Origin: an uncultured Bacilli bacterium
GTDB lineage: Bacteria; Bacillota_I; Bacilli_A; RF39; UBA660
Reading direction: 5' to 3'
Length of the DNA stretch: 64,000 bases
NCBI GenBank assembly: GCA_947589735.1
Contig: CANQCR010000006.1
Span: 6,161 to 70,160, forward strand
Shown here: positions 14,276 to 56,124 of the stretch, piece by piece
How positions within the stretch are numbered: the first letter of the stretch is position 1
How the letters are laid out: every line of letters begins with the position of its first letter
Notes under the pieces: model-generated
The model's database searches: none
What the model was told of the DNA's origin: nothing
Seen by the model: the letters and a program-made list of their open reading frames with translations, nothing else
Program-made: the position numbers and the translations under genes

Positions 14276-14440
14276 ATCACACCTCCTAACTAAATAATAC
14301 CGTTTAAAAAAGTCTCTACTACACCGTAATAGAGACTTAAGAGTTTCTTTATCTTTAGCTCCTCGGTAGGATAATTAAGGTTTCCCCCCTACTGTCTACG
14401 GTACTTGCTTCACGCACTATATTATAACATACTAATTTTT
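14276..14440 (-). promoter_or_regulatory. putative L10 (rplJ) leader with intrinsic attenuator hairpin
   Basis: 180-nt untranslated gap upstream of rplJ. Hairpin AAGTCTCTA/TAGAGACTT at 14310-14338 is followed by a T run on the minus strand, just before the rplJ SD AGGAGGTG. L10 leaders acting by attenuation are known in Bacillota. Confidence 0.45.
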
Positions 14441-21284: not shown

Positions 21285-22310
21285 TTATTCGCCACTACTT
21301 TTACTTTCTTCCATTAACAAGTCAAAATCTGATTTATATAATTTGTCTTGTTTAACTCTATACTTTTCAAATTCTGTTAATGCTTTATCACAAGCAATTT
21401 CATGTGATATTTTTCCAGCATCTTTTAAAATATCTCTATCATCTGAAAGTAAAAATTTATCTATTCTTGTCGTCCAATCTTCCATTGTCATAGGTATGTT
21501 TCTTTTTGCTCTTGCTTCTGCCAAATCCAAAAATGCACTAACAATTCTTTCTAAATCTTGAACTTCTTCTTTTGATAGATAATTTTTTGCAATGATAACA
21601 TCTGATTCAAGTATTTTGCCATTTGGAGAATTTTTCCATGATGTTAAACCCATATTCTCCTTATTTGCATCTACCCTATCATATATTATTTCAGCAGCAG
21701 TTTGTTTTGAAACAGCATAGTGCATTTTGTTTTGAACTTTTTTAAAAAAGGCTATTGAAATAGGAGACTTAGGGTCATAGTCAATGCTTGTTGCATATAT
21801 ATCTGTTACTTTTTGATAAAATCTTCTTTCAGATGACCTTATTTCTCTTATTTCTTCAAGTAACTGTTCAAAATAATCTTGATTAATAAAAGATCCATTT
21901 TTCATTCTTTCTTTATCTAATACATAACCTTGAATCGTAAAAGTTCTTAAAACACTAGTAGCCCATCTTCTAAATTGAGTGGCCCTAATTGAATTTACTC
22001 GGTACCCTACAGAAATAATTGCATCTAAATTATAAAATTCAACACTTCTTCTAACCTGTCTTTTTCCTTCTAATTGAACCAATTCCATTTTGGAATAAGT
22101 TGAAGTTTTTTCAAGTTCTCCATCCGAATATATATTAATTAAATGTTTTGCAATTGCTGGCTGTTCTACATCAAATAATTCAGCCATAGCTTTTTGAGTC
22201 ATCCAAAGAGTTTCATTTTCATATTTTACTTGAATACCTTTATCTTTTTCTTGTACTTTAAAAGTAATAAACTCTTCAGCACTACTTCTAATCATTAAAT
22301 CTTTTGCCAT
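21285..22310 (-). CDS. RhuM-family protein, copy 2 (roughly half identical to copy 1 by eye)
   Basis: Same conserved blocks (NLDAIISVGYRVNSIRATQFRRWATSVL, NKENMGLTSWKNSP). ATG at 22310 after GAAGGGGGATG. Confidence 0.8.
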   Translation of the reverse strand: MAKDLMIRSSAEEFITFKVQEKDKGIQVKYENETLWMTQKAMAELFDVEQPAIAKHLINIYSDGELEKTSTYSKMELVQLEGKRQVRRSVEFYNLDAIISVGYRVNSIRATQFRRWATSVLRTFTIQGYVLDKERMKNGSFINQDYFEQLLEEIREIRSSERRFYQKVTDIYATSIDYDPKSPISIAFFKKVQNKMHYAVSKQTAAEIIYDRVDANKENMGLTSWKNSPNGKILESDVIIAKNYLSKEEVQDLERIVSAFLDLAEARAKRNIPMTMEDWTTRIDKFLLSDDRDILKDAGKISHEIACDKALTEFEKYRVKQDKLYKSDFDLLMEESKSSGE

Positions 22311-22368
22311 TTTCGCATCCCCCTTCATATGTTCTTAAATGTCGTAATCAACCAGTTGATAATCATTT

Positions 22369-23237
22369 TTAGTAAAATTCTATTTTCTTTGCTTCATCTA
22401 TATATTCATAATTTAAACTATTGCTTTGAGATATAGCTGATTTTTTAGTTTCTTTTTCATATAAATCCTTGGCTCCTTTGGCAACTCCTCCACCACGTTT
22501 TGCTACACTTAAATTTTCTTTTAAACCTGTTGGATGTTCTTCTCTTGCAATATCCCTTGTTGCTATTTCACCAATATTTGTTAGGTCAACTTCAATGTCA
22601 GTCATATTATCTCTCAAAGATTCTTTTCGAAGACCTTTTAATTTTTTATATTCAGAAGCAGTCATATTTGACCAACCTTTATATATTTCGTTAGTTAAAA
22701 GCTTTCGTTAGTTAAAAGCGCATATTCTAATGGTTTAGTAATTCCTCCTTCTTTCCACACATCAGTAAGTTTAAAGCGATCTACTATTCCATTTAATCTT
22801 GCCTTTATCCATTCATCATTATATCCTTTTTTACGATAATATTCTATCGCTCTATTAACGGCAAGTTCAGGATCAAACACTTCATCAATTCTTTCACTTC
22901 CTAAATTTGCAAGCCATAGTTTAAATGGTTCAGCTTTGTTTGATGGAACTGATTCAATTAATCTTAAAATTCCCTTAGTATCTAATACATCAGTATTATA
23001 AAACTTCCCATCTTTGGCTTTTAATTTCAGTTGACTACAAAATGTAGTCAACTCAGACCCTTCTTTTTTCAATCTTAACTTTAATACAGACCAATATTTT
23101 CTAGCATCACTGCTATCAGTTAATGCGTTTATAACATCAACAACACTAAAGTAATACTCTTCTTTTTCACTATTCCAAATGCTTCTTATTTCTTTACCAT
23201 CAAAAAGATTTGAAATTGTTTCTAATTTATTATTCAA
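22369..23237 (-). pseudogene. Bro-N domain (phage antirepressor-like) gene split by a 17-bp tandem duplication
   Basis: ORFs 22695..23237 (TTG start after AGGGGGA, Bro-N-like N-terminus) and 22369..22665. Deleting one copy of the 17-mer joins them in frame as ...EYALLTNEIYKGWSNMTASEYKK... Confidence 0.8.
22686..22719. repeat. perfect 17-bp direct tandem duplication (TTTCGTTAGTTAAAAGC x2)
   Basis: 22686-22702 and 22703-22719 are identical when read directly from the sequence. 17 is not a multiple of 3, so the duplication shifts the frame. Confidence 0.95.
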
Positions 23238-23554: not shown

Positions 23555-23579
23555 TAAAAAACTAAGAATAATCTTAGTT
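23555..23579 (-). terminator. rho-independent terminator
   Basis: Stem AACTAAGA/TCTTAGTT with a 4-nt loop overlapping the stop at 23574, followed by a T run on the minus strand. Confidence 0.6.
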
Positions 23580-24193
23580 TAATTCCTTATAATTTGATTT
23601 CATACTTTTCATATAAAATTTTCCGATTCTTTTGGTATCATATTCTAGTAAATTAGGATTTTTTTGTTTGATGACTTTAGGTAAATCAAAATATTTAAAG
23701 CCATAGATGAACACTAGTTGACTATATGGATTACCTCCATAAACTATTCTTTTATCGCCATTTTTAAAAATTAATTTTGTTTTGCGATGGATGTTTTGAA
23801 AAAGGTAGCGAGGATTACTTATTTTATTATACATCATAACAACATCGGAGTATTTATATACATTAACTTTCATTCTTTTGCTAATTATAATATAATTATC
23901 GGTTAATATAAGCCGTGACCAAAAATAGTATATAACCTTATCTAATTTCTCTGTCTCGTTCATTTGCAATAATTTAGAATACACTTTATTAAAAAAAGAT
24001 ATTTCAACAAGATTACCAAGCAATATTATGCTTAGACATACAAATAAAATACCAAAAGATTTTAAATATACCCAAATATCAGCATATAATATAAAAAATA
24101 TAGACGATAATAGCAATAATATATTAGAACATATTAAGTATTTATTTTTCTTTTTTAATTTCTTTTTTCACTTTCGGTATCAATAGCAATCAT
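23574..24193 (-). pseudogene. two-TM membrane protein gene, apparently frameshifted at an A6 tract
   Basis: The 180-aa ORF (23574..24116) has only a TTG start and no SD. A strong SD (AAGGTGG) plus ATG at 24193 opens a 12-codon ORF. One extra A in the A6 tract (24163-24168) would fuse them as MIAIDTESEKKKLKKKNKYLICSNILLLLSSIFF... Confidence 0.5.
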
Positions 24194-32432: not shown

Positions 32433-33980
32433 TTATGATGCCCGTAAAACTTTTTGCTTATTAATTTCATATTGTTTACTTAATTCACTACGCATTTCTT
32501 TTTCCATGTTTCTTTTCGTTTTAAGATCTTTTTCCAACTGATTAAGCATGGCATCTACTTCCTTATAATTAGGTATATATTCGGCATAAGGCGCAAAACG
32601 ATTTTGGAATATTTCTTTTAACGCACCAACTTCGTTTAAAGAATCATCAATTAGACGCATTGTCGTACTAATAGCATCTTCCGTTTGAAATATTTCGCGT
32701 TCAATACTTTGATACTTTTCTTTAATTTGTGTTTTTTCTACCTTTTCAGGAACGAGGCTAGCTTTTAATTCAGTAAGGCCTCTATTTATTAAACCGGTTC
32801 CCAGCATAACACCAAACAAGCGGTGGTTCGTTAACGGTGTTGTTAAAATACCAGCTGTTATTCTTAAGAAAGATGCTAACATCCGGCCCGTTTGGTAAAT
32901 ATATTCCGTTTTTTTAACAATTTCCGTTTCAATTTTACTTAAGTGGTTCCATAACTCAGCAATAATTTTTTGCTGACGGATAACTTCTTCCATAATTTGT
33001 TTTTCAAAATCATCTAAATAAATCGTTTGTTTTTTAGCTTTATCGAAGTCTTCATCACGACTAGTAATTTCCACATTTTTATCGTCAATATCCCCTTTTA
33101 AGGATTCTTTTTTAGCATCCTCTTCAAGAATACCATCGATTTCATCAACTTCTTCTTTACATACATCAACAAGCGTTTCCAATTCATCTAAACGAGCCTT
33201 ATCACGGTAATCGGATATAGCTGTAATAAGAGGAATACTATCTAAAAGGTCATAATCTTCAAAGGCATATTTTTCTTTCATCGCTAAATAGCGACTCTTT
33301 AACGCATCAATTTTTTCCTGTAAAGCCTTATAACGCTCTTCTAATTTTGCCATATCTTCCTTGGTGTGTTGCTCTTCGAGGTCATCTTTAATACCATCAA
33401 TCTCATCCTTTATTTCGGTTAACAATTCTTTACTATCAGAAATAAAAGTTGCGACTTCATCTAATATGACAATTTCATCTTCTCTTTTAGCAATTTCATC
33501 ATCAATCGCGATAACCTCATCAGGTGGCATCATCCCAACTGGAGTTTTAGTACTGATAACTTCATAATAATTAAAATCATCAAAGTTAACATCTTCAACA
33601 CTTGGATCAAATGCCGTAACTTCTTTGCCAAGATTAATAAGTGTTGATAAATCATGTGAAGTTAAAATCGGTTTTTCTTCTAAATCTTGGGCTTGATCTT
33701 TAATTGAACGGGCTTGGGAAGCATTTTTCTGAGGAGGAAAAGCTTCATCATTTAAAGGACGTAAGGTATCCTCTAACACAGCTTTATCCTCTTCATCAAG
33801 GTCTCTAGCACCTAAATCAATATCAAAAGTTTGAAGTTTAGATAAATAATCTTTTATCTTCGAACGATCATCTTTATTATATGAACTTCTTTTTTTCATC
33901 TGGTCCATATAACGACGACGATACATCATACTAATCAACCGGTCATTAACTGAACCTTTAGCTCCTCTACTACCATTCAT
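32433..33980 (-). CDS. large coiled-coil protein with basic N-terminus, acidic middle and C-terminal hydrophobic segment; function unknown
   Basis: 515-aa ORF with SD GAGGGA and a TATAAT about 25 nt upstream. Ends 14 nt before the ATPase gene. Confidence 0.6.
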   Translation of the reverse strand: MNGSRGAKGSVNDRLISMMYRRRYMDQMKKRSSYNKDDRSKIKDYLSKLQTFDIDLGARDLDEEDKAVLEDTLRPLNDEAFPPQKNASQARSIKDQAQDLEEKPILTSHDLSTLINLGKEVTAFDPSVEDVNFDDFNYYEVISTKTPVGMMPPDEVIAIDDEIAKREDEIVILDEVATFISDSKELLTEIKDEIDGIKDDLEEQHTKEDMAKLEERYKALQEKIDALKSRYLAMKEKYAFEDYDLLDSIPLITAISDYRDKARLDELETLVDVCKEEVDEIDGILEEDAKKESLKGDIDDKNVEITSRDEDFDKAKKQTIYLDDFEKQIMEEVIRQQKIIAELWNHLSKIETEIVKKTEYIYQTGRMLASFLRITAGILTTPLTNHRLFGVMLGTGLINRGLTELKASLVPEKVEKTQIKEKYQSIEREIFQTEDAISTTMRLIDDSLNEVGALKEIFQNRFAPYAEYIPNYKEVDAMLNQLEKDLKTKRNMEKEMRSELSKQYEINKQKVLRAS

Positions 33981-36589: not shown

Positions 36590-36622
36590 TAAAAAAAGAA
36601 CCCAACGTTTAATTGGATTCTT
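36590..36622 (-). terminator. rho-independent terminator closing the bacteriocin-like operon
   Basis: 10-bp stem AAGAAUCCAA/UUGGGUUCUU (one G-U pair) followed by T7 on the minus strand, 10 nt after the pepB stop. Confidence 0.75.
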
Positions 36623-36631
36623 TTTAGGAAT

Positions 36632-36799
36632 TTAAATTTTACAACATGATCCTGATAAAAGGCGCCGAACGGCTGTTCCAAAGGCCTGTCCTAATTCAAA
36701 AGACAACTCAGCACCGCGGACAAGGGTTGAAAGTAGACTAGCGGATATGTTAGTACCACCCATTATATCTAATAATTCCCCTTTTGATAATTCTACCAT
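36632..36799 (-). CDS. double-glycine leader peptide B (55 aa precursor, 40 aa predicted mature)
   Basis: My own translation (too short for the ORF track). AAGGAGGG SD, ATG at 36799. MVELSKGELLDIMGG / TNISASLLSTLVRGAELSFELGQAFGTAVRRLLSGSCCKI, TAA at 36632. Confidence 0.7.
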   Translation of the reverse strand: MVELSKGELLDIMGGTNISASLLSTLVRGAELSFELGQAFGTAVRRLLSGSCCKI

Positions 36800-36808
36800 A
36801 ATCCCTCC

Positions 36809-36952
36809 TTAATTACATTTTAATGGTCGAATAAGGCCATCTAAAAAACCAATCGCAAATGGTGTGCCGAAAGCAATGGCCGCAATAACGCCAATACTAA
36901 GTTCAAACCCACCATCAATTTCCTTTAATTCATCAACTTTTAACTCTTCCAC
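36809..36952 (-). CDS. double-glycine leader peptide A (47 aa precursor, 32 aa predicted mature)
   Basis: My own translation. AAAGGTGG, 6 nt, then GTG at 36952. MEELKVDELKEIDGG / FELSIGVIAAIAFGTPFAIGFLDGLIRPLKCN, TAA at 36809. Confidence 0.7.
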   Translation of the reverse strand: MEELKVDELKEIDGGFELSIGVIAAIAFGTPFAIGFLDGLIRPLKCN

Positions 36953-37418
36953 TTCTAACCACCTTTCTTAGTTTATTAGTAAAATATTGATACAAGGTTA
37001 TATCCCCATTATCAATCTTCACTTCTAAAACATTACTATCAAAATTAAGTTCCTTCTCTAATTTGCAATCAAAGAAAGCCTCCCAATACTTAGAAGCATT
37101 GATAAGATAATAATTATCGCTCATCTTGATTAACTGGCAATGAACTTCTTCGTCATTAATGATTAGATAATTGCGATTTTTCTTCTTAAGAAAATCTTCA
37201 TTAACGGTAAACTGAATATAACTATCCTCTTCATTTTTTACTACTTTAGCATAATATATATCATATGATTTAAATCGATAAAACAAACTGATTAACAATA
37301 ATAAAATGCTGCCTATTATTAAAGCACTAATCCAAATGATTATTTTACTTTCTAATTTTTGATTAAAAATAACCCTAGCATTATTAAAAATATCGATTTG
37401 TTCAAGTTTCTCGTGCAT
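36933..37418 (-). CDS. small single-TM protein, possible truncated HlyD/LcnD-type accessory protein or immunity protein
   Basis: 161 aa with an N-terminal cytoplasmic segment, one TM helix, then a soluble domain. Overlaps the ABC gene stop by 17 nt and the pepA start by 20 nt. Confidence 0.5.
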   Translation of the reverse strand: MHEKLEQIDIFNNARVIFNQKLESKIIIWISALIIGSILLLLISLFYRFKSYDIYYAKVVKNEEDSYIQFTVNEDFLKKKNRNYLIINDEEVHCQLIKMSDNYYLINASKYWEAFFDCKLEKELNFDSNVLEVKIDNGDITLYQYFTNKLRKVVRSGRVKS

Positions 37419-39567
37419 TTGTTAAAGCTCCATCTTTTAAGATTAAAGAGGCATCATATAAATCAGCATTTTCGCCTCGATGCGAGACAATTACAATTGT
37501 TTTTTGCCTATATTTTGTAAATAAGTTTTTTAAAATCTCTCGTTCCGTTTTAATATCGACTTGATTTAACCCCTCATCGATAAGTAAAATGTTAAACTTT
37601 TTAAGTAGCGTTCTAGCTAAAACAATTCTTTGCCTCTCACCACCCGACAAATTAAAACCATTTTCTTCAAGCAACATATTAAAACCATTTTTACTCTTTT
37701 TCATAATTTCATCAACATAACACATTTTTACGACTTCATTAACCTTTGAAAAATTAATTGATTGATATAATGTAAGATTATTATATAAAGTATCTGTAAA
37801 TAAATTTTCATTTTGACTGATATAACATATTCCATTAGTTTTCATATAATCATTAATATCGATATCATTTATATAAATGGTATCCCGACTAACTGGGTAG
37901 TATTTCATCAAAACTTTAAGTAAAGTACTTTTACCACTACCACTAGGTCCTAAAATTAAAATCTTCATACCTTTTTTGATGTCTAAATTTAAGTTTTCTA
38001 AAATTAACGTTTCTTGATTATAACTATAATTCAAATTTCTAATTTTTATATCACCTTTATAGATATCATCATTGCCATTATTAATCACACAATAACTAAT
38101 ATCCATTAATCTTTTAAGAGCAAGATCAAACTCACGAATATCTTTTTCTAAACTAACTACACGTTTAATCGGATCAAAAAAATAAGTTAATATGGCACCA
38201 AAAGATAATAGACTACCAAATGTCATTTTTTCATTGATAACTAAAATAGCGCCCATACTATAAATAACTATTAAGCCACTATCAGCGATAAGATTTCGCC
38301 AAAAATGTTGAAATGCTTGCATACAATCGTGTTTATGGGTTTTACGTAGTAACTTAACAAATTTCTTTTCAAAGACATCATCAATGGTATCAGCAATACC
38401 TAAGCCCTTGATTGTCTCAAAATTATTAATTCCTTCTAACATTGTATTAGTAGCTTCAACGTTATCTTTTTTAATCTTTCTAATCGCATCATCAAAATAA
38501 TCTTTAAAAAGAAAATAAATAATAATATATAGAATAAGAATAATAATCGTTAGTAAACATAGTTTACTATTTATTAAAAAAAGGAAAATGAATGAACATA
38601 ACATTAATGGTATATCAATAATAACTGTTAATAATAATTTACTAATTGTGGTTTTAATAACACTAATATCTAAAATGCGGGTAACTAAATCACCAGTCGT
38701 TTTTAAGCGATAATATTTATAAGGAAGCGATAAAATCTTCTTAAAAGTATCCAAAGTTAAAGCAAGATTAATCTTTTCACTCAAAAAGATAAGAATCTTA
38801 GTTTGAAAATACTCCGTGATATTTTTGAGGAACGTTAGAATGATAAAAAGTAAAAGAACTAAGATAATTCCCTCTTGACCTTGATAAGAAGTTATTGATG
38901 AGCTAATACACTCTAAAAAAAATGATCCACCAATGGCAAATATAGTCACAAAAAAAGATAAAAAACAAAGTTGTTTAATTAATTCTGGATGTGTTTTAGT
39001 GATATGGTTGATGAGGTTAAGTTTAAAATTATTTTGTGCTTCCACTGGTATTTCATCTTTAGGATAAAGCAAGATCATTACGCCACTAAAAATAGATTTA
39101 AAAATATCAAAAGACATTTTCATCATTTTGTTAGCTGGATCAGCAATTAACAATGTTTGACGAGCAAAATCAATTTTATAAATGACAACGAAATGACGAT
39201 AAGTATTGTTAATAATAACATTGGCAATGCAAGGTAAAACAATATTATCCTCATTTATTTCATCAAGATTACATTTTACCCCCTTAGCTTCAAAACCGAT
39301 TTCGCTAGCTCCTTTAACGATATGATACGCACTTGTTCCGGTCTCTGTTATATTAAGTAATTCTCTAATTTTTGGTAAACTTAAATAACCCTTATAATAA
39401 CTGATAATCATTTGAAGACAGGCAGCCGCACAATCATATACTTCCTCTTGCTTATAAAACGGATACTTTTTAATTCTATCACCTCCTACTATATTATTAT
39501 TGATATAGCGTGTATTTCCTTTTTTAAATTTAAAAAATTTTGCAAAAAGCAAAATTTTATTTTTCAT
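37402..39567 (-). CDS. bacteriocin/competence-type ABC exporter with N-terminal peptidase C39 domain
   Basis: C39 triad context YDCAAACL (Cys), RHFVVIY (His) and IADP (Asp), a six-TM ABC membrane domain, Walker A GPSGSGKST, LSGGERQR and LLIDEG. Start uncertain: ATG at 39567 or 39594, or an atypical start after the AGGAGGTGA at 39479-39487. Confidence 0.88.
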   Translation of the reverse strand: MKNKILLFAKFFKFKKGNTRYINNNIVGGDRIKKYPFYKQEEVYDCAAACLQMIISYYKGYLSLPKIRELLNITETGTSAYHIVKGASEIGFEAKGVKCNLDEINEDNIVLPCIANVIINNTYRHFVVIYKIDFARQTLLIADPANKMMKMSFDIFKSIFSGVMILLYPKDEIPVEAQNNFKLNLINHITKTHPELIKQLCFLSFFVTIFAIGGSFFLECISSSITSYQGQEGIILVLLLFIILTFLKNITEYFQTKILIFLSEKINLALTLDTFKKILSLPYKYYRLKTTGDLVTRILDISVIKTTISKLLLTVIIDIPLMLCSFIFLFLINSKLCLLTIIILILYIIIYFLFKDYFDDAIRKIKKDNVEATNTMLEGINNFETIKGLGIADTIDDVFEKKFVKLLRKTHKHDCMQAFQHFWRNLIADSGLIVIYSMGAILVINEKMTFGSLLSFGAILTYFFDPIKRVVSLEKDIREFDLALKRLMDISYCVINNGNDDIYKGDIKIRNLNYSYNQETLILENLNLDIKKGMKILILGPSGSGKSTLLKVLMKYYPVSRDTIYINDIDINDYMKTNGICYISQNENLFTDTLYNNLTLYQSINFSKVNEVVKMCYVDEIMKKSKNGFNMLLEENGFNLSGGERQRIVLARTLLKKFNILLIDEGLNQVDIKTEREILKNLFTKYRQKTIVIVSHRGENADLYDASLILKDGALTNARET
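39479..39525 (-). promoter_or_regulatory. conserved ~47-nt element, copy A (GGAAAT-N9-ATCAATAATAATATAGTAGGAGGTGA)
   Basis: The 26-mer at 39479-39504 is identical to 56476-56501. GGAAAT recurs 9 nt further upstream in both copies. The element includes a consensus SD. Confidence 0.5.
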
Positions 39568-41719
39568 CCCGTAAACTATTAATTCCCATGTCATAATATT
39601 TTTGAGGATTTTCTAAAGATATGTTTTCATAATGATAAATATAAGTTAAATTATCTTTCTCTTCAACTTTAAAGTGATTATTAAACTTATCTTTAAGATA
39701 GGCTTCTTCATGAGCTACATGATACTTATCTAATAACTTATACTTACTAACCATAGCCTCAATAGGTCCTGATATAATTAATTCTAGATTAGGATGCTTT
39801 TGATAACGTTTATGATAAGCATCAATGATTTTAACTATTTGATGGTCATTTAACTCATATGATAAAGTTACTCTCCTAGCGCCCATTGCATGAAGTAAAG
39901 CGACACTATATGAATTAACAACATTAAAAGAAAAATCCGTTACACAATTATCATATTTATATAGGCTTCCTAATTCCCCAATTAATAATGGCGCATCTTC
40001 CTTAGTTAACCTTTCTAAAACGCGTGGTATTTTTAAAATTAAATTATCATGGGGATATTTATCCCATATATCGTGACCTACATATATCTCTTGGTAGTTA
40101 TCCTTTTTTATTTTAGCGTAGTCTTCTATTTTACTAATAGCTAAAGTTCTAACTCTTTCTTTAGGAAAATCCTTAACATCTCTCCTATACTCGCCCTTGG
40201 TAACTGGTATTTCATATAACCTTTTTTCCGTTAGTAAAGATATGGCCGTTCTTCTTAATTCATTAATTTTTCTAATTGGAATAAAAATATTATCATCGCC
40301 ATGAAAGCTAGTTACAGAAGCTTCAAAAACAGTACCGCCTAATTTAGCCATTTGATCTTTTATCACCATCACACTCGTTGGTGAGGTAATACTTTCTTGG
40401 ACAATAAAATCGCTTTTAGTAACACAGGTATTAATGCCATCCGTGATAGTTAATGTCAAAGGCTTACCTACATAAGCATCAATATCTAAAGATACGCTTA
40501 CCTTTCTTTTTTGACTAGCAATTTTTTTATTTATATCATCAATAAGTTTGGTATCAGTTGTTTTAACAACCTTAGATCCGACACTAATATCCCCTTTAAA
40601 AGGAATTTTAATAATAGAACTAGCCCCAGCTTCTTTTACTTTCACCCCGTTAAGATAAATAACATCAACTTCTTTACCAACGTCATCCCCACCAACAATG
40701 CGAATACCATCTTTAACACACACCGGTTTAGTCAGTTTTATCGTGACTTTTTTGCCATCATAATTTAAAACCTCACCAATATTGATACCCAAATGATTAG
40801 GTCGATAAGAATTCGTTATTTTAGTCTTATCTTCATTAAAGATAAATCCTTTGGTAAACTCCCGGTTAAAAAGACTTTTAATGTCTTCAATATCATCATC
40901 ATTTATCTTTACCTCTCCAGTTTTAAAATAACTGTCAATGGCTTTACGATATAAACTGGTAACCATATAGACATACTCTGGTCTTTTCATCCGTCCTTCA
41001 ATCTTAAATGAATCTATACCTGATTCAATTAATTCATCGATATGCCTTAAAGTCATCAAATCTTTCATACTAAGCAAATATTTTTCATCATTTACTTTTT
41101 TATTATCAACAATTAAATCATATGGTTGCCGGCAACACTGCGCACAAGTTCCCCTATTACCACTTCTACCACCAATTAAACTACTCATCAAGCACTGTCC
41201 AGAATAACTCACACATAAAGCGCCATGAACGAAAACTTCAATCTCAATATCCGTTTGTTTTTTAATTTCGGATATTAATGATATCGGTGTCTCACGAGCC
41301 AGAACTACCCTTTTTGCCCCTAATTTTTGAACAAGCTTAACCCCTTCTAAATTATGAATATGCATCTGCGTTGAAATATGGATTTCTAAATTAGGATACG
41401 TTTGGTGAATTAAATCGAACATACCAATATCTTGAATAATAACCGCATCAACATTAGCGTGATGCAAAAAAGATACATACTTAAGAAAATTCTCGACCTC
41501 ATCTTCATAGATTAAAGTATTAATTGTAACGTATACTTTAACACCATATAAATGAGCAAGCTTAATCGCCTTAATTAATTCATCGTTATCAAAATTACTG
41601 GCAAAGCTTCTTGCACCATATAATTTTCCCGATAGATATACCGCATCACATCCAGCTTCAATAGCAGCAATTAAACTTTCAAAACTACCAGCTGGTGCTA
41701 ATAACTCTGGCTTTTTCAT
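39557..41719 (-). CDS. peptidase U32 family protein (long, two-module form)
   Basis: MKKPELLAPAGSFESLIAAIEAGCDAVY N-terminus and U32 signature EVFVHGALCVSYSGQC. ATG at 41719 preferred. Confidence 0.85.
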   Translation of the reverse strand: MKKPELLAPAGSFESLIAAIEAGCDAVYLSGKLYGARSFASNFDNDELIKAIKLAHLYGVKVYVTINTLIYEDEVENFLKYVSFLHHANVDAVIIQDIGMFDLIHQTYPNLEIHISTQMHIHNLEGVKLVQKLGAKRVVLARETPISLISEIKKQTDIEIEVFVHGALCVSYSGQCLMSSLIGGRSGNRGTCAQCCRQPYDLIVDNKKVNDEKYLLSMKDLMTLRHIDELIESGIDSFKIEGRMKRPEYVYMVTSLYRKAIDSYFKTGEVKINDDDIEDIKSLFNREFTKGFIFNEDKTKITNSYRPNHLGINIGEVLNYDGKKVTIKLTKPVCVKDGIRIVGGDDVGKEVDVIYLNGVKVKEAGASSIIKIPFKGDISVGSKVVKTTDTKLIDDINKKIASQKRKVSVSLDIDAYVGKPLTLTITDGINTCVTKSDFIVQESITSPTSVMVIKDQMAKLGGTVFEASVTSFHGDDNIFIPIRKINELRRTAISLLTEKRLYEIPVTKGEYRRDVKDFPKERVRTLAISKIEDYAKIKKDNYQEIYVGHDIWDKYPHDNLILKIPRVLERLTKEDAPLLIGELGSLYKYDNCVTDFSFNVVNSYSVALLHAMGARRVTLSYELNDHQIVKIIDAYHKRYQKHPNLELIISGPIEAMVSKYKLLDKYHVAHEEAYLKDKFNNHFKVEEKDNLTYIYHYENISLENPQKYYDMGINSLRDEK

Positions 41720-41763: not shown

Positions 41764-42579
41764 CTAACATTCATCTAGATGCGAAGATGTATCTAGTCCT
41801 AATCCTTTCGAAGTAACATATTCTTCAAGCATTTTAAGATTATTAATGAGTTCTTCATTTAAAGTGAATTTGAAAAATGTTCCTGCTGTCATTTCTTTTT
41901 TTATACTTAATAGAGGTTGACTTGAAATAACATTCATTTTACTAAGAGAATGACTTTTATTAGAACTACAACTTTTTAAAAAACTATATTCTTCCAAAGG
42001 ATTATAACAATCCATTAAAGTTTTGGTTTCATTATAATAATCTTTACTAATTCGCTTATAATCTTTGAATGAACTATTACTTATCAAAATATTATTATCT
42101 TTCATTAAATGTTCAATTATATCTTTATTCTCATCATAGATATGACTATTAACGATAAAATTATAATTTTTAAAAGGATATTCTAGTGATAAAGCAATAT
42201 TACCACTATCAAGTTCTATAAAAAAATAAACACTAGCCTTTTTAGGATTACCTTTAATAATATATTTATCATAATTATTAGATAAGGATATAGTTGGTAA
42301 GACATTATCATACTGGTAGTATTTAGAATCATAATATCCTATTTTACGCATTTCATTATAGCTTTTATCAATATTAACTTTTTGGCCACACCATCCGGGA
42401 ATAATCGTTTTATCGATTATTTGAGCATCTTCGGCGGGCTGTTCAAAGGATGCATATTTATCTTTAATTTCTAGCATTACTTCATCGGTGTTTTTAGCAA
42501 TCATCGCTGTTTTTTCCGTCATAAAAAAGCTAAAACACATCAATGTAATTAGGCCAATATATTCAAAATATTTACGCAT
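41764..42579 (-). CDS. membrane-anchored hypothetical protein
   Basis: 271 aa, an N-terminal TM helix, then a soluble domain. Family not recognised. Confidence 0.5.
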   Translation of the reverse strand: MRKYFEYIGLITLMCFSFFMTEKTAMIAKNTDEVMLEIKDKYASFEQPAEDAQIIDKTIIPGWCGQKVNIDKSYNEMRKIGYYDSKYYQYDNVLPTISLSNNYDKYIIKGNPKKASVYFFIELDSGNIALSLEYPFKNYNFIVNSHIYDENKDIIEHLMKDNNILISNSSFKDYKRISKDYYNETKTLMDCYNPLEEYSFLKSCSSNKSHSLSKMNVISSQPLLSIKKEMTAGTFFKFTLNEELINNLKMLEEYVTSKGLGLDTSSHLDEC

Positions 42580-56047: not shown

Positions 56048-56124
56048 GTCTCAGTAGCTCAGCTGGATAGAGCATCGCCCTTCTAAGGCGAGTGTCGGGG
56101 GTTCGAATCCCTCCTGGGACACCA
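56048..56124 (+). tRNA. tRNA-Arg (anticodon TCT), CCA encoded
   Basis: Hand-folded: acceptor stem GTCTCAG/CTGGGAC, AGCTCAGCTGGATAGAGC D-arm, anticodon stem TCGCC/GGCGA with loop CTTCTAA, GGTTCGAATCC T-arm. 77 nt. Confidence 0.92.

Follow-up and report, generated by a model that had tools for sequence, protein, structure and literature searches.

We analysed a 64,000-nucleotide stretch of the genome of an uncultured Bacilli bacterium (GenBank assembly GCA_947589735.1, contig CANQCR010000006.1, positions 6,161 to 70,160), hereafter called the window. Between a U32 peptidase gene and rpsU, the window contains a minus-strand operon of four genes, encoding an exporter of the PCAT type (peptidase-containing ABC transporter), a 161-aa membrane protein, and two small peptides, pepA and pepB. 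The operon probably makes and exports a class IIb-like two-peptide bacteriocin. An earlier note on this DNA had proposed such an interpretation, which gains support from the pairing of the peptides, the presence of the exporter, and a set of invariant motifs; these features, all read from sequence, point to an antimicrobial activity. The locus is best filed as a class IIb-like system whose peptide families and small accessory family are new and whose evolutionary pattern is unusual.

The two peptide genes are present on the minus strand as the earlier note described them, each with its own Shine-Dalgarno (SD) sequence (AAAGGTGG upstream of pepA and AAGGAGGG upstream of pepB), and they are separated by 9 nt (Table 1). 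Both peptides begin with the double-glycine leader of 15 residues that had been ascribed to them. Specifically, the leaders have hydrophobic residues at positions -4, -7, and -12, Glu at -8, and Gly-Gly at -2/-1, and the Gly-Gly is invariant in 37 pepB and 7 pepA sequences. A relaxed six-frame scan for Gly-Gly leaders over the 64-kb window gave nine matches, of which only pepA and pepB combine a canonical leader with a hydrophobic or amphipathic mature part.

Each peptide also has the single GxxxG motif pointed out earlier, and the motif is conserved in the alignments. In pepA, G35xxxG39 (GFLDG) and Cys46 are invariant among orthologues. The pepA family follows the consensus ...F.IG..DG[YF].RPL.C[NRK], with a single GxxxG and a single Cys in 47 of 48 variants, and is hydrophobic, with a grand average of hydropathy of 1.18. 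In pepB, the positions invariant across 37 diverse members are the Gly-Gly, G37xxxG41 (GQAFG), R45, R46, and C53. The pepB family is amphipathic, with a mean charge of +4.1, and an AlphaFold2 model of pepB is a single long helix spanning residues 15-49. One C-terminal Cys had been noted in pepA and two adjacent ones in pepB; the first observation stands, but of the pair in pepB the second alone (Cys53) is conserved. The conserved Cys in each peptide is, from the alignments, compatible with an inter-peptide disulfide.

The mature parts of both peptides change slowly. Compared with the nearest relatives, the ratio of nonsynonymous to synonymous divergence (dN/dS) is 0.05-0.08 for mature pepA and 0.03-0.05 for mature pepB, at a synonymous divergence of 0.55-1.1, which is near saturation. 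More distant pairs have ratios of 0.16-0.47 or are saturated. Where the accessory protein of a relative is 45-68% identical to that of the window, the exact lengths of pepA and pepB are kept, with no indels. By these comparisons, pepA and pepB are real genes under strong purifying selection. The description of the peptides as unannotated holds for their function, but not for their existence in databases, as all four proteins of the operon are present in public collections as unnamed hypothetical predictions.

The exporter contains the three domains expected of its type according to Pfam, namely Peptidase_C39 (4e-33), ABC_membrane (4e-34), and ABC_tran (8e-25), and its Walker A, signature, Walker B, and H-loop motifs are intact. 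Its best PDB sequence match, and best full-length match, is PCAT1 of Clostridium thermocellum (PDB 4ry2 and related entries such as 8vp3; E = 5e-103). The alignment spans residues 42-725, starting from KKYPF, and denotes similarity rather than orthology; here, a conserved pair of peptides takes the place of the PCAT1 cargo. Both the Cys/His/Asp residues and the ATPase motifs align. Specifically, DCAAACL, HFVVIY, and ADP of the exporter match residue by residue the Cys, His, and Asp contexts of PCAT1 (DCGAACL, HFVVIY, and ADP), in agreement with the claim that the C39 catalytic contexts are kept; the codon of the catalytic Cys is at 39432-39430. With NCBIfam TIGR01193 (peptide cleavage/export ABC transporter), the exporter scores 376.1 bits, below the cutoff of 523.85. 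Judged by these matches, it is a divergent member whose domain architecture and catalytic residues are those of a PCAT.

The start of the exporter gene probably differs from that implied in the earlier note. The longest ATG open reading frame (ORF), which was taken as the gene, overlaps the U32 peptidase gene. In the window (39472-39487) and in related loci L009, L018, L048, and L036, a conserved AGGAGG is followed after 7-8 nt by an in-frame ATT (ATA in L018) just before KKYPF. In L009 and L018, the stretch from the preceding in-frame stop to the catalytic Cys contains no ATG, GTG, or TTG, and at the equivalent start position more distant relatives use ATG, TTG, or GTG. From this pattern, the exporter most likely starts at the non-canonical ATT at 39474 rather than at the ATG at 39594, and the public exporter calls of 670-730 aa, like the ORF start at 39594, are probably wrong.

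The peptide pair and its exporter recur as a unit. A word-index search with the single pepB sequence gave one homologue, and a profile of locus-derived orthologues was needed; with it, the search gave 834 clusters. The best 120 of the 834 all have E < 1e-17, and nearly all of these are 53-59 aa long. The relatives are labelled hypothetical in metagenome-assembled genomes (MAGs) titled "Mollicutes bacterium", "Bacilli bacterium", and "Firmicutes bacterium", and one relative from JGI is labelled "bacteriocin-like protein". The operon recurs in metagenome contigs and in "uncultured Bacilli bacterium" MAGs from rabbit gut, where the order ABC gene, accessory gene, pepA, pepB, rpsU is kept with the accessory protein at 45-68% identity; the same order from the ABC gene to rpsU is found in relatives with 27-32% identity. 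We surveyed 63 further metagenome loci, several human-gut contigs among them, annotated with local profiles. The unit of the survey is the distinct pepB variant, of which there are 56, and the denominators are loci with enough flanking sequence. pepA lies immediately upstream of pepB in 48 of 51 loci, always in the same order, and a C39-ABC gene lies upstream of pepB in 27 of 28. The operon usually sits just upstream of rpsU-yqeY: in 23 of 30 loci, rpsU follows pepB within 1.5 kb, and this adjacency persists even where a gene other than that of the U32 peptidase stands upstream. A search of the plasmid database PLSDB with consensus pepB found no relative.

One related locus, L019 (CAVDCT010000018.1), comes from a MAG titled "Roseburia sp. 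AF12-17LB" and has a Bacilli-type operon with synteny as in the rabbit-gut Bacilli MAGs; the label or the binning of this record is probably wrong. In some of the related loci, genes for thioredoxin and cysteine desulfurase are close by, but we do not count them as linked to the operon, since their side and distance vary.

Judged by the defining features given in a review of class IIb bacteriocins (PMC2850506), the locus resembles those of lactococcin G and plantaricin EF/JK in several respects. The operon contains two different peptide genes next to each other, and their double-glycine leaders, at 15 residues, are within the 15-30 residues of the class. A dedicated C39-ABC exporter, which would cleave these leaders, is part of the operon too, like that of lactococcin G. 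Both mature peptides are predicted to be helical and hydrophobic or amphipathic, with GxxxG motifs, and a gene for an accessory protein stands beside the transporter gene. There are also differences. The mature sequences are unrelated to those of any characterised member; there is no immunity gene in the window; the accessory protein is only 161 aa, has no HlyD or LcnD match, and is absent in many relatives; one conserved Cys stands near the C-terminus of each peptide; and the locus is chromosomal, has a fixed place beside rpsU, and is conserved over a broad clade instead of varying between strains.

The earlier note described the 161-aa protein as the sole accessory protein of the operon, and it is indeed present, without a HlyD match. 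Its gene overlaps the end of the ABC gene by 17 nt and the start of pepA by 20 nt. The predicted topology is an N-in, single-pass protein with an extracellular beta domain. In an AlphaFold2 model (mean predicted local distance difference test score of 76.7), a short N-terminal helix is followed by a transmembrane helix (residues 24-46), a beta-rich region (48-141), and a C-terminal helix. The protein has no Pfam match, and none of 52 sampled family members has a Pfam HlyD match. A profile search covering 1.84 billion representatives gave 162 clusters at E <= 1e-3, of about 60-170 aa and mostly 125-165 aa. On these sequence searches, the 161-aa protein founds a new small family.

Membrane-fusion proteins (HlyD, MacA, Spr0693, LcnD/ComB) offer one comparison for the modelled fold, which appears to share with them the N-in orientation, one transmembrane segment, and a beta-rich extracytoplasmic domain, encoded by a gene beside the exporter gene. 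The 161-aa protein differs in lacking the coiled-coil hairpin and lipoyl domains and has one third of the usual size. In a Foldseek search with the model, membrane-fusion proteins (Spr0693, MacA, BesA, and MexA) dominate the top matches, at E ~0.1 and a TM-score of ~0.3, and no match reaches E <= 0.001. We do not claim membership in the HlyD family, as the Foldseek matches are non-significant and there is no sequence match.

A Mycoplasma pair offers another comparison, since it also combines a C39-ABC protein with a small protein in low-GC Bacilli/Mollicutes. The exporter matches NCBIfam NF045998 (Mbov_0121 C39 ABC) with E = 5e-89 and 299.4 bits, below the cutoff of 500. The 161-aa protein matches NF045999 (MAG1140) only weakly (E = 0.011; 15.9 bits, cutoff 35), and 11 of 52 members of its family do so at E <= 0.01, the best at 6e-5. 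These scores suggest a kinship that is distant at best.

In 18 distinct related operons, pepA directly follows the ABC gene with no accessory gene between them. Because so many related operons are without it, the accessory protein is not essential for export. PCAT1 was likewise solved without an accessory protein, and many relatives of the window operon also have none. The minimal operon, composed of the ABC gene, pepA, and pepB and without accessory gene or third gene, is seen in L033, L058, L062, L064, L065, L067-L081, and L085-L087. Some of these minimal loci are not beside rpsU; L071 is near ybeY, and a long ORF near it is presumably a YqfD-like gene.

The third gene, found after pepB in many relatives and overlapping its end, encodes a protein of 50-58 aa. 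This protein has a basic N-terminus, one transmembrane helix with a LLPxIIP motif, and then the pattern ..G...GT.IR......C. Its last 25 residues align to the C-terminal half of pepB (hhalign probability 90%, P = 1.8e-6); pepA gives no hhalign alignment signal with either pepB or the third protein. Based on this resemblance, the third protein is probably a candidate immunity factor, a membrane-tethered decoy of pepB. Examples are at 1002-1181 in L021, 5759-5935 in L022, and about 6147-6314 in L024, and in many of L025-L066; the gene in L024 was missed by gene callers.

The third gene occurs only in loci that also have the accessory gene. Eighteen loci have both, 8 have the accessory gene only, none has the third gene only, and 18 have neither (Fisher p = 1.6e-6, with kinship among loci ignored). 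The window and close relatives of it account for 6 of the 8 accessory-only cases. The 64-kb window contains no homologue of the third protein, and the best match of the third-protein profile there is pepB itself. From this distribution, the missing third gene appears as a clade-specific loss in the clade of the window. The earlier remark that the locus has no obvious immunity gene is thus true for this clade but not for relatives, which carry the candidate after pepB.

The features above suggest how the system might work. The C39 domain would cut after Gly-Gly during export and release both mature peptides. Released pepA would be a hydrophobic 32-aa peptide, with a transmembrane-like helix and a DGxxRPLxC tail, while released pepB would be a cationic amphipathic helix of 40 aa. 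The two would pack through their GxxxG faces, and their single Cys residues may link by a disulfide, in a habitat that is anaerobic. The pair would then permeabilise target membranes, probably via a membrane-protein receptor. The 161-aa protein may be a minimal type II membrane adaptor, with a role in export or self-protection that would be auxiliary, given the many related operons that work in its absence. Among relatives, the third protein would probably give immunity as a tethered pepB decoy; the clade of the window does not have this protein, so its self-protection must come from elsewhere.

Several observations weigh against a bacteriocin. The locus is deeply conserved, in a fixed place beside rpsU across a wide clade, with no plasmid copies. 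Bacteriocins, in contrast, are usually patchy, mobile, and strain-variable. The window peptides are below the family average in cationic charge, with a net charge of 0 for pepA and +2 for pepB. The mature peptides also resemble no characterised bacteriocin or PDB entry in searches of Pfam, NCBIfam, and PDB, in line with the earlier statement that neither sequence is recognised. Specifically, mature pepA and mature pepB have no match in Pfam or NCBIfam, the pepB precursor matches no Pfam, NCBIfam, or PDB family, and profiles of both precursors against PDB sequences give chance matches only, with no link to solved class IIb peptides. A literature search with the conserved motif strings found no paper. 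In favour of class IIb, the window pepA precursor does match NCBIfam TIGR03949 (lactobin A / cerein 7B) with 29.5 bits, above the cutoff of 21.5, and 3 of 7 pepA orthologues pass this cutoff. Because the mature part alone gives no match, the similarity lies in the leader and the Gly-rich hydrophobic start, outside the conserved F.IG..DG..RPL.C core, and we rejected it as evidence on mature pepA. Lastly, class IIb peptide genes are always accompanied by an immunity gene (PMC2850506), and the window operon has none.

Several of these observations would fit peptides that are not weapons and form a core, lineage-wide pair in physiology or communication, serving in signalling, an envelope function, or kin recognition. 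Such a role would explain vertical inheritance at a fixed position. It agrees with the size of the family and the high conservation of the mature sequences, the adjacency of rpsU in 23 of 30 loci even with other upstream neighbours, and the lack of a plasmid copy in PLSDB. It also agrees with the many operons, that of the window included, that have no candidate immunity gene, and with a conserved element in the promoter region (described below), which suggests common regulation. However, no sensor kinase or regulator is found near the surveyed loci. Within ~6 kb, neither the window locus nor its relatives have a histidine kinase/response regulator (HK/RR) pair or a modification enzyme, in line with what the earlier note had reported for the locus. 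The locus differs in this respect from ComC/BlpC with ComDE/BlpHR, and also in its mature peptides of 32 and 40 aa. With a length of 30-40 aa, a hydrophobic or cationic-amphipathic character, and GxxxG motifs, such peptides are like class II bacteriocins and unlike known pheromones. Moreover, pheromones usually diversify into pherotypes, whereas pepA and pepB are conserved, and the pepB-like third protein fits an immunity decoy. We regard a role other than as a weapon as unlikely, but not far-fetched.

A bolder variant, which we consider rather unlikely, is that the locus represents an undescribed lineage-wide two-peptide system of uncultured Mollicutes-like gut Bacilli, set apart from classical class IIb bacteriocins by Cys-linked peptides, protection (where there is any) by a tethered pepB mimic, and inheritance as a vertical core trait beside rpsU. 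In such a system, the mimic (the third protein) would occur only together with the accessory protein, and the pair may serve physiology or the recognition of kin instead of warfare between strains.

It is improbable that pepA and pepB act independently, whether as two one-peptide (class IId) bacteriocins or as an inducer and a bacteriocin. Outside the leader, the two sequences are unrelated (hhalign of the mature parts, P = 0.07) and differ in physico-chemistry, as independence would predict, and the leader of one orthologue weakly resembles BlpC or ComC. Yet the two genes are adjacent in 48 of 51 distinct loci in constant order, each peptide has one invariant GxxxG and one invariant Cys, no HK/RR pair is there to sense an inducer, and the ComC and BlpC scores are far below the cutoffs. 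Lastly, there is next to no chance that the exporter serves a substrate encoded elsewhere and that pepA and pepB are either ORFs that arose by chance in an AT-rich spacer or remnants in decay: apart from the leader-driven match no curated family is found, as this would require, but the comparison excludes chance or decaying ORFs because lengths are kept without indels and mature-part dN/dS is far below 1 at near-saturated synonymous sites, and there are hundreds of homologues of equal length, an SD for each ORF, and no other canonical Gly-Gly-leader ORF in the six-frame scan.

If the peptides of this probable two-peptide bacteriocin are active, they represent a new bacteriocin sequence family in widespread, barely studied, uncultured low-GC gut Bacilli, those of the human gut included. 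They would offer a new scaffold for antimicrobials and a way to approach competition within the gut niche. Bacteriocins themselves are common; what is new here is the breadth of the family in uncultured gut Bacilli and the accessory/decoy module. The locus raises the questions of what purpose is served by an accessory protein of 130-165 aa that related operons do without, whether a tethered mimic of one bacteriocin subunit can give immunity, and why, over a deep clade, a bacteriocin-like locus has kept one fixed place on the chromosome.

The boundaries of the operon are well defined. Downstream, the 100-nt gap between pepB and rpsU is filled by an intrinsic terminator and the rpsU promoter, and the hairpin fold and the promoter match bear out the earlier statement that the operon is closed just before that promoter. 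None of 200 shuffled sequences folded as well as the terminator. Upstream, a hairpin and T-run separate the U32 peptidase gene from the operon, and relatives have a hairpin of other sequence at the equivalent position.

The 5' region of the operon is invariant in DNA sequence across relatives although the reading frame differs. Of 22 distinct loci, 15 have an AAAGGAWWW (AGGAWWW) element some 30 nt before the SD. It stands directly after the terminator of the upstream gene and is followed by a TATGWTAT-like AT-rich box. In the window, the element is AAAGGAAAT and equals the sigma-H -35 consensus, RNAGGAWWW (PMC8510167). We rejected a sigma-H promoter, as there is no RNNGAATWW -10 at the right spacing. 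An upstream ORF or leader peptide was likewise rejected, since the frame differs among relatives while the DNA is conserved. An Rfam search of the operon, including the 5' region, found no family.

Table 1. Coordinates of the operon and its flanking elements in the window
Feature	Position	Strand	Details
pepA precursor	GTG 36952 to 36809	minus	47 aa, MEELKVDELKEIDGG/FELSIGVIAAIAFGTPFAIGFLDGLIRPLKCN (leader/mature)
pepA leader	36952-36908	minus
pepA mature peptide	36907-36812	minus	hydrophobic, 32 aa
pepB precursor	ATG 36799 to 36632	minus	55 aa, MVELSKGELLDIMGG/TNISASLLSTLVRGAELSFELGQAFGTAVRRLLSGSCCKI (leader/mature)
pepB leader	36799-36755	minus
pepB mature peptide	36754-36635	minus	amphipathic, 40 aa
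PCAT-type ABC exporter	37402..39474	minus	probable start ATT 39474; longest ATG ORF to 39594; from domains and PCAT1 alignment
C39 leader-peptidase domain	39055..39468	minus	Pfam PF03412, residues 43-180 of the 730-aa ORF
161-aa accessory membrane protein	36933..37418	minus	no Pfam family
Intrinsic terminator	36590..36622	minus	hairpin and U-run; dG -16 kcal/mol, z = -4.4
rpsU promoter	36571-36543	minus	TTGAAA-17-TGnTATAAT; extended -10, matches 11/12 positions
Hairpin and T-run after the U32 peptidase gene	39534..39558	minus	dG -8.4 kcal/mol, z = -2.2
Conserved operon 5' region	39482..39523	minus	AAAGGAAAT element 39523-39515, AT-rich box, SD AGGAGG 39487-39482

Elsewhere in the window, two minus-strand genes without a Pfam match encode a 271-aa protein with an N-terminal hydrophobic segment (41764-42579) and a 515-aa protein (32433-33980); in several relatives, both genes keep their synteny with the operon. 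At gathering score, Rfam has just two matches in the window, a ribosomal protein L10 leader (RF00557, 71.9 bits, 14297-14419, minus strand) and a tRNA (56048-56121, plus strand). The 180-aa ORFs at 22695-23237 and 23574-24116 were considered as duplicates and rejected, being unrelated to each other. The first of them is a Bro-N domain gene on the minus strand and, together with a RhuM-family gene at 21285-22328 on the same strand, suggests a small mobile-element or prophage remnant.

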